NCBI RefSeq assembly: GCF_003334255.1
Contig: NZ_QOWU01000181.1
Direction: 5' to 3' (one strand)
Length of the DNA: 955 nt
From: Escherichia coli
GTDB taxonomy: Bacteria; Pseudomonadota; Gammaproteobacteria; Enterobacterales; Enterobacteriaceae
This document shows positions 1 to 955 of this stretch, one piece after another. A program made the translations under genes and the position numbers. Under the pieces are notes generated by a model. That model was not told the origin of the DNA, searched no databases, and saw nothing but the letters and a program-made list of their open reading frames with translations. Numbering within the stretch: the first letter of the stretch is position 1; each line of letters begins with the position of its first letter.

Positions 1-43
1 TCCAGCCATCAGCCGAAAGGCACCCGCGCATAATCTACGATTT

Positions 44-60
44 TTGCCCTGCACGGGCAA
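44..60. other. Second short hairpin (6-bp stem TTGCCC/GGGCAA, 5-nt loop) next to the terminator; function unclear
   Basis: Seen in sequence: 44..49 TTGCCC and 55..60 GGGCAA are perfect reverse complements. The hairpin is flanked by a T-run on its 5' side and an A-run on its 3' side on the plus strand, so it lacks a trailing U-tract in either orientation. It may stabilise the 3' end or belong to terminator architecture shared with a convergent neighbour. Confidence 0.3.
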
Positions 61-86
61 CAAAAAACCCGCCATCACAGCGGGTT
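58..86 (-). terminator. Rho-independent (intrinsic) terminator of the CDS
   Basis: A perfect 7-bp stem (66..72 AACCCGC pairing with 80..86 GCGGGTT) encloses a 7-nt loop (73..79). On the minus-strand transcript this reads AACCCGC-UGUGAUG-GCGGGUU followed directly by UUUUGUUG, giving a GC-rich core and a U-tract. It begins about 25 nt after the TGA stop. Confidence 0.75.
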
Positions 87-108
87 ATGACATGTTGTCG
101 GATACAGA

Positions 109-840
109 TCAGAATTTCAGGCCAATACCTACAACAACCCCGCTCGTGCGCCAGTCACCAGATCCGGAGCTTTCATACGCGACATCCATAGCAACACTTT
201 CATTCAGGTTAAATTGTGCACCAGCAGCCCATGCAAGTGCTGTTTTTTTCGTACTGTTGCTTTCAGAAAATCCACCGGTACTGTTAATGTTGTCCTTAAT
301 TTTCAGGTCAGCGGTAACTTTAGCTACGCCCATACCAGCCATTGCATACACACTGAGGTATTCGTTAAACCGCCACGAAGGACCGGATAGTAGACTCCAG
401 TAATTAGCCCTGATATCAGTTCTCGCTGAAGCTGCCGGATTTTTAACCTCTCTGGATTCATCTCCTGGGTTAATATCAATAAATGCCTGCGCATTAGTCA
501 TAGAACGCGCCCATGTAAAAGATGTTATAACACCAATCTCATCCGTTATCTCATAACGATACCTGATGCTCATCCCCTGAGGAGATTTGCCTTTGCCATC
601 ATGCCCCCGGACAGAAGCATCTGCATATTCGCCTGAATTGAAGTAGTGTCTGTTTGTAAAACGGTTAAAAGTATCAAGATTATAAAGACTTAAATCCTTA
701 ACAAAATTGTTCAGTCCAGAGAGCTGAAGATGAGCGTATCCGAAAGAAACTGTACTGTCACCTTGTGCTGCACAGGCAGGGGCTGCTACAAAACTCATCA
801 CAAAAGTTGTGCACGCAAAAATAATTCTGGCATGTTTCAT
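109..840 (-). CDS. Ail/Lom/PagC/OmpX-family outer-membrane beta-barrel protein precursor (Lom-like, virulence-associated), 243 aa
   Basis: Seen in sequence: uninterrupted 244-codon minus-strand frame, ATG at 840..838, TGA at 111..109. N-terminus MKHARIIFACTTFVMSFVAAPACA|AQ is a textbook Sec signal peptide. The C-terminal block ...AYESSGSGDWRTSGVVVGIGLKF ends in Phe, the aromatic beta-signal of outer-membrane barrels. From memory, the blocks STVSFGYAHL, MSIRYRYEITDEIGVITSFTW, SGPSWRFNEY..YAMAGMG, ALAWAAGAQFNLNESVAMDVAYE and SGSGDWRT are colinear with lambda Lom (STLSAGYLH, INVKYRYEFTDTLGMVTSFSY, AGPSVRVNEW..YAMAG, SLAWGAGVQFNPTESVAIDIAYEGSGSGDWRT..GVGYKF). No database search was run. Confidence 0.85.
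   Translation of the reverse strand: MKHARIIFACTTFVMSFVAAPACAAQGDSTVSFGYAHLQLSGLNNFVKDLSLYNLDTFNRFTNRHYFNSGEYADASVRGHDGKGKSPQGMSIRYRYEITDEIGVITSFTWARSMTNAQAFIDINPGDESREVKNPAASARTDIRANYWSLLSGPSWRFNEYLSVYAMAGMGVAKVTADLKIKDNINSTGGFSESNSTKKTALAWAAGAQFNLNESVAMDVAYESSGSGDWRTSGVVVGIGLKF
769..840 (-). other. Predicted Sec signal peptide (residues 1-24), likely signal peptidase I cleavage after A-C-A (or one residue later after C-A-A)
   Basis: Positively charged n-region (K2, H3, R5), hydrophobic core IIFACTTFVMSFVAA, then A-x-A-type motif ACA followed by AQGD. Pro at -2 relative to the Cys argues against a lipobox, so a lipoprotein is unlikely. The corresponding lambda Lom segment, as I recall it, is ...AVSGAPAWA|SEH. 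Confidence 0.7.
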
Positions 841-851
841 TTTTAGACTTT

Positions 852-855
852 TCCT
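852..855 (-). promoter_or_regulatory. Candidate Shine-Dalgarno (AGGA) for the CDS
   Basis: Minus-strand sequence reads ...ATTATAGGAAAAGTCTAAAAATG. AGGA lies 11 nt upstream of the ATG, which is longer than the optimal spacer but the only purine-rich SD-like element present. Confidence 0.45.
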
Positions 856-955
856 ATAATAAAATAACCCCGTATTATCTAAGATGAATTTAGTTTTATT
901 ACTTAATATTCATACTGACAGGCATATCAGTCATATATTGATGAATTAATGACCA
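856..955 (-). promoter_or_regulatory. AT-rich 5' region presumed to carry the gene's own promoter; weak candidate -10 GATAAT (plus coordinates 874..879)
   Basis: The region is visibly far more AT-rich than the CDS. On the minus strand GATAAT matches TATAAT at 5 of 6 positions and sits about 34 nt upstream of the ATG. No convincing -35 hexamer at 16-18 bp spacing (best is GTAATA, 3 of 6). The exact promoter cannot be fixed from sequence alone. Confidence 0.35.

Follow-up and report, generated by a model that had tools for sequence, protein, structure and literature searches.

Intrinsic terminators of Escherichia coli and its phages are found at the 3′ end of phage "moron" genes, lambda lom being one example. 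Closure of the messenger by pairing of its 5′ tac element with its 3′ fbi element is a hallmark of hok mRNAs, as described for the R1 system, and at other hok/sok loci this pairing likewise keeps the full-length mRNA closed. The enrichment of hok genes in prophages has already been documented (10.1101/2025.08.07.668861). This article deals with a place where the two kinds of element meet: a stretch of 955 nucleotides from E. coli (contig NZ_QOWU01000181.1), hereafter the window, whose positions 25..86 very likely hold the terminator of a lom gene followed by the promoter of a hok gene, both on the minus strand and both belonging to adjacent accessory units of a Stx-type lambdoid prophage.

Each half of this junction has a close counterpart among described systems. 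Like other intrinsic terminators, the lom element combines a GC-rich stem of 7–8 bp, a short loop and six U directly 3′, placed 22 nt past the stop codon of an accessory gene of the lysogenic-conversion type; it differs in nothing essential, except that the last two bases of its T-run are here also the first two bases of the −35 hexamer of the next promoter. The hok part shares with R1-type hok/sok a weak promoter with the same layout (−10 hexamer, 6 nt, +1 G), the tac–fbi pairing, a Sok promoter in the leader and a toxin with the SLCE motif. In contrast to R1-type and most other hok promoters, which are without a palindrome, the lom-linked hok promoter carries a lineage-specific one. The lom–hok junction as a whole is an ordinary one, already covered by existing knowledge and data.

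The lom gene and its predicted terminator

The best E. coli match to the window (98.8% identity) lies in a prophage, and an IMG/VR contig differs at 18 of the 955 bases, none of them in window 1..150. The same junction is present in Stx-converting phages of the Sepvirinae, for example vB_EcoP_24B and the Stx phage of EDL933. All annotated relatives have, as the next gene to the left, a Hok/Gef gene that shares the minus strand with lom, and across 17 kb of the related locus L001 all 17 genes are on that strand. The hok gene itself stands outside the window, and its position was deduced from relatives identical over 1..150 and 98–99% identical overall, in which its start codon is found about 125 nt beyond position 1. 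The features are collected in Table 1.

Table 1. Features of the lom–hok junction, in coordinates of the 955-nt window.
Feature	Position	Strand	Basis or remark
First 25 nt of hok mRNA, tac element GGGUGCCUUUCGGCUGA...	1..25	minus	pairs with 3′ fbi element outside the window
hok mRNA transcription start, first G of GGGUGCC	25	minus	Rfam model start; orthologous Cappable-seq start
hok promoter −10 hexamer TAGATT	32..37	minus	TAnnnT at −12..−7 in 15/15 contexts
Perfect palindrome TTGCCC-N5-GGGCAA	44..60	either	spans −35 hexamer and upstream part of promoter spacer
hok promoter −35 hexamer TTGCCC	55..60	minus	17 bp upstream of −10; also 5′ arm of hairpin 44..60
T-run TTTTTTGTT, U-tract of the predicted lom terminator	59..67	minus	sequence; terminator scan
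Predicted lom terminator stem-loop AACCCGCU-GUGAU-GGCGGGUU	66..86	minus	ΔG −11.7 kcal/mol; terminator scan, folds, conservation
Ail/Lom-family outer-membrane beta-barrel gene (lom), 243 aa	109..840	minus	ORF; RefSeq annotation of 98.8%-identical DNA

The lom reading frame ends at a TGA codon (111..109), and its product gives partial NCBIfam matches to the Rck and OmpX families. Upstream of the gene, window 841..955 is very AT-rich, with 25% GC against 44% in lom. The Cappable-seq table of EDL933 contains no lom-specific start site; the nearest sense starts (1377120 and 1377363) belong to two upstream genes, and lom may therefore be co-transcribed with them. Three wastewater isolates carry an IS1 insertion between lom and the gene upstream of it (L135 2457..3154, just right of window 840..955).

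Two perfect short hairpins had been reported downstream of lom in a preliminary description of this DNA, and both are indeed there. The one at 44..60 (TTGCCC-TGCAC-GGGCAA) has six perfect pairs and a 5-nt loop, with RNA folding energies of −8.3 (plus strand) and −9.2 kcal/mol (minus strand). The one at 66..86 (AACCCGC-CATCACA-GCGGGTT) has seven perfect pairs, or eight with a U·G pair in the minus-strand RNA, and a folding energy of −10.0 kcal/mol on the plus strand (that of the minus strand is given in Table 1). Both are recovered on folding either strand, with z = −2.0 against shuffles for the minus strand (30..108) and z = −2.2 for the plus strand (25..100). When the window is shuffled with its dinucleotides preserved, 20% of the shuffles contain at least one GC-rich perfect hairpin of at least six pairs, so that hairpin 44..60 taken alone does not go beyond chance; two such hairpins no more than 30 nt apart appear in only 0.1% of 2000 shuffles, and the pair does therefore exceed it. 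Searching Rfam with the window gave no RNA family covering 41..90, only sub-threshold matches shaped like attenuators or terminators (Trp and Leu leaders, Hrs1), those to the Trp and Leu leaders being explained by recognition of the terminator shape. A dispersed repeat or REP-like element was discarded as an explanation, both hairpin sequences being confined to this junction within 1.15 Mb of related loci. Visual inspection of 41..90 for LexA and CRP boxes showed only a CRP half-site, TGTGA, in the loop of hairpin 66..86.

The A/T run between the hairpins had been taken for the U-tract of a minus-strand terminator, and this interpretation holds: the run 67..59 trails the stem of 66..86, which begins 22 nt past the lom stop codon. 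The accompanying claim, that a U-tract exists only on hairpin 44..60 and only in the minus direction, was right as to the direction and wrong as to the hairpin, the tract belonging to 66..86. In the minus-strand RNA this stem counts eight pairs, five of them G–C, closing a 5-nt loop, and it is followed at 65..57 by the tail TTTTGTTGC, with six U directly 3′ of the stem. The T-run is shared on both sides, for its bases 66–67 can also close the stem and its bases 59–60 open the hok −35 hexamer. A terminator scan of the minus strand finds hairpin 66..86 with this T-run as its sole site. Across 11 distinct relatives, seven of the eight pairs are unvarying, as is the T-run except at position 61 (G or A), while the 22-nt spacer between the lom stop and the hairpin has accumulated many substitutions in the same relatives. 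Hairpin 66..86 and its T-run are thus predicted to be a canonical intrinsic (rho-independent) terminator of lom, at which transcription of the gene would end by the stem-loop 86..66 followed by UUUUUUGUU.

The preliminary description had gone further and proposed a shared or bidirectional termination region, in which a convergent plus-strand gene would end at a frame-1 TAA (31..33). The TAA is present, and as in bidirectional intrinsic terminators of convergent genes the hairpins fold on both strands with A/T runs flanking them; on the plus strand, hairpin 66..86 comes after an A-run. There is also a plus-strand transcript on the left, Sok, whose antisense start appears in Cappable-seq data. 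However, no convergent gene is found there: the left neighbour is hok on the minus strand, co-oriented with lom and with all the other genes of the 17 kb. With the sequence extended leftwards through the relatives, the frame closed by the TAA spans no more than 25 codons when counted from an ATG, and its orientation is antisense to the hok leader. On the plus strand the hairpins are followed by CAAAAAA (44..60) and ATGACATG (66..86), neither of which is a U-tract, and the only site detected by the scan is on the minus strand. Sok, for its part, has a stem-loop and UUU tail of its own, from which this short antisense RNA would end about 20–25 nt beyond the left edge of the window. Convergent or bidirectional termination is accordingly scarcely credible here. 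Long plus-strand ORFs do run antisense through the hairpins and lom (window 44..403 (+); EDL933 1378841..1379086 (−)), one of them being locus 29910 in the annotation used by PMC10469882; it is absent from the current RefSeq and probably spurious.

The hok promoter and the hok/sok locus

Past the T-run, the minus strand enters a weak sigma-70 promoter of hok, directly downstream of the lom terminator and overlapping the end of its T-run by two bases; as the last two bases of the one are the first two of the −35 hexamer of the other, terminator and promoter abut. The promoter consists of TTGCCC, 17 bp, TAGATT and 6 nt before the G at position 25. Its hexamers agree with the consensus at 8 of 12 positions, which is weak and falls under the threshold of a promoter scan. 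Its conservation was followed through the tac sequence: viral contigs scanned for the 17-nt tac gave more than 120 stretches, each a hok locus, 80 of them among the matches listed, and the regions upstream of these tac-bearing loci were grouped into 15 sequence clusters with differing upstream genes (lom, P2 ogr, the tail-tip gene J, a ribosomal protein paralogue and others). Among the matches listed, TAnnnT occupies −12..−7 in every cluster, and TTGnnn stands 16–18 bp further upstream in 14 of the 15.

Two other stretches recur across the unrelated contexts of these clusters. One is an A-tract in the promoter spacer, at about −22..−18 (window 41..45); the other is a GC-rich stretch between −10 and +1 (GCGC or GCGT; window 26..31), which may hint at stringent-type control.

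Besides these hexamers and their recurrence across the clusters, a model match and a fold point to window 25 as the start of the hok mRNA. The Rfam model of the sok/hok leader, RF01794, has its first position there, in a match to L001 8025..7865 on the minus strand that stays below the gathering score (42.1 bits against 59, E = 6.7e-8), and an RNA beginning at this base folds with the tac–fbi closure described below. In EDL933, whose orthologous hok locus is 90.7% identical and has the same palindrome with one loop difference, the corresponding start was computed from the alignment, before any look-up, as CP008957.1 1378994 (+). Published Cappable-seq data (PMC10469882, supplementary files 6 and 7) place a start at exactly 1378994 (+), in eight of eight conditions and assigned to the Hok/Gef gene. 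The hok promoter and its start site are therefore measured in an orthologue, and the promoter is further backed by its conservation across contexts. The same data contain additional sense 5′ ends on the (+) strand at 1379067, 1379091, 1379103, 1379129 and 1379181, that is hok +74, +98, +110, +136 and +188; they lie left of the window, inside the leader and the coding part of hok. Some are found under all eight conditions, and they could be internal promoters or artefacts.

The locus to the left of the window has the make-up of a hok/sok system. The toxin ORF, present in the left flank of all close relatives, encodes 46 residues and is annotated Hok/Gef by RefSeq; its product is a small hydrophobic toxin with an SLCE motif, matched by the NCBIfam HokA model with E = 9e-10, below the curated cut-off. 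A 366-nt RNA taken from L001 and beginning at window 25 has a minimum-energy fold closed by pairing of the 5′ GGGUGCC(UU) with the 3′ (AA)GGCACCC (z = −6.1, none of 100 shuffles being as stable). Window 25..1 would then be the 5′ tac, which would pair with fbi some 350 nt downstream and keep the full-length toxin mRNA closed. On the opposite strand, within the hok leader, inspection reveals a Sok promoter (TTGCCT, 17 bp, TAACCT), and the antisense start recorded in EDL933 at 1379100 (−), equivalent to hok +107 and found in eight of eight conditions, fits its position. Among the ORFs listed, no overlapping mok frame of at least 20 aa was seen.

The literature yielded no experiment on this particular hok locus. 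The hokW of PMC8621323 is another one: identity with the hokW–sokW of Sakai prophage Sp5 is ruled out by the published primer sequences, and unlike the toxin described here, which has 46 aa and begins MSQKSLITV..., hokW has 51 aa and begins MKQQKAM.... Experiments on hokW therefore do not transfer directly.

The 3′ ends of hok loci also deserve a few observations. P2-type loci (L005 1400..1520, minus) have a strong intrinsic terminator 24 nt after fbi, AACCCCGCAGCG-TAAAAA-CTGCGGGGTT with a T-run. The lom-linked type (L001 7600..7700) is without such a 3′ terminator, and the ATG of its next gene overlaps fbi (ATGGCACCC, L001 7679). A further group of GGGTGCCTT sites, which follow strong terminators, was set aside: these are not promoters, being the reverse complement of fbi and the 3′ terminator at P2-type hok loci. 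Finally, O121 strains have a frameshift in hok, and strain 2014C-3338 has a truncated hok (L133 1236..1377; L004 1600..1737); these strains still possess the promoter, together with both hairpins or with only the palindrome.

The palindrome over the −35 hexamer

What, then, is hairpin 44..60? Its 3′ flank reads AAAAATCG on the minus strand and CAAAAAA on the plus; because it has a U-tract in neither direction, it is not an intrinsic terminator. The palindrome arises because the spacer bases GGGCAA happen to be complementary to the −35 hexamer, and among the hok promoters compared only those of the lom-linked (Stx-phage type) lineage have it. The promoters of P2-type, J-type and other hok genes keep the −35 hexamer and the A-tract, with other sequence in place of the 3′ arm. 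The palindrome can be separated from lom: in L004, apparently a deletion or recombinant, it is kept with neither lom nor hairpin 66..86, the break lying just upstream of the −35 hexamer. Palindrome 44..60 is therefore promoter DNA, with a hairpin potential probably incidental to this lineage and presumably no terminator function. At most it would add a small hairpin to transcripts reading through the lom terminator.

The tail-tip junctions have a layout of their own: in L004 (1900..1940) and L010 (1880..1910) the hok −35 hexamer comes some 15–20 nt past a J-like tail-tip gene, with no lom and no terminator, and the L004 junction sits just upstream of ATTGCCC.

Several readings would give the second hairpin a function of its own, and the natural variation bears on all of them. 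It is limited: the lom–hok junction, present in 41 stretches of the whole viral collection, shows 7 haplotypes in 51 instances. Within the stem only two positions change, each by a one-sided C-to-T that leaves a G·U pair on the hok-sense strand, and no compensatory change occurs among these 7 haplotypes and 51 instances. For this reason covariation can neither prove nor disprove a structure. Pairing is nonetheless fully maintained within the lineage, and the retention of G·U is weakly compatible with a role at the RNA level.

One such role would be that of a tandem terminator or insulator, the hairpin catching or processing the transcripts that escape the lom terminator and so preventing hok expression from 5′-extended read-through RNA. 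The closeness of the two hairpins beyond chance speaks for it, as do the stem pairing kept in all 11 distinct relatives (both C-to-U changes giving G·U on the hok-sense strand), the intrinsic terminator found just upstream of the promoter in other hok lineages too, and a second lineage, that of L086, with a different 6-bp palindrome over its −35 hexamer. Yet the hairpin is followed by AAAAAUCG, hence is no intrinsic terminator, and its few haplotypes show no compensatory double change. Nor is a hairpin a general property of hok promoters, a possibility that was also considered for itself and rejected: 13 of the 15 promoter clusters are without a comparable one, and folding energy over −50..−9 is not systematically low. 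The two clusters with a 6-bp palindrome over the −35 hexamer are the lom-type, split across L001 and L004, and the L086 lineage, and we estimate ourselves that 2 of about 14 lineages would have such a hairpin by chance with a probability of about 0.1. The J–hok junctions (L004 and L010), moreover, have no terminator upstream of hok. Our analysis brought no evidence in support of an insulating palindrome, and we consider the role unlikely.

A related and very unlikely possibility is that hairpin 44..60 acts as a functional RNA element in read-through transcripts, where it would insulate or be processed by an RNase and thereby couple Hok to the lytic cycle. After induction of the prophage, late transcription antiterminated by Q would pass the lom terminator and enter hok; in the resulting RNA the palindrome, lengthened by the U-run and A-run on its flanks, would form the insulating or RNase-processed stem. 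The palindrome might also act as DNA. A perfect dyad over a −35 hexamer has the typical geometry of an operator, and TTGCCC-N5-GGGCAA, with its 6-5-6 arrangement, could bind a dimeric phage or host repressor controlling hok transcription. Against this, the orthologous promoter of EDL933 fires in eight of eight conditions, natural variants (L092, L133 and L134) break the dyad on one side only, most hok promoters are without it, 1.15 Mb of related phage DNA contains no further copy of it, and the analysis turned up no candidate regulator; an operator is thus highly improbable. The reading of 44..60 as ordinary promoter DNA of the lom-linked lineage is the one retained here.

Meaning for the accessory genes of Stx phages

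The region thus appears as a compact junction where a predicted terminator has bases in common with a toxin gene's promoter, the T-run of the one ending inside the −35 hexamer of the other. With its reading as a convergent or bidirectional terminator corrected, its significance is mainly one of annotation. In Stx-type (Sepvirinae) phages hok comes immediately after lom, and the hok/sok locus is unannotated in the two phage GenBank records examined, yet its start site is in published Cappable-seq data. In these records, HM208303.1 (L137 1280..1707) and PV340552.1 (L138 1281..1709), a gap of about 430 nt after lom is left empty; in bacterial chromosomes RefSeq puts a Hok/Gef gene in the equivalent stretch. 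Should the palindrome be an RNA element after all, its stem would define a near-native 5′ end for hok, and Hok production would thus be coupled to the lytic cycle. More broadly, a functional palindrome would bear on how type I toxin modules may be insulated from read-through inside phage late operons.
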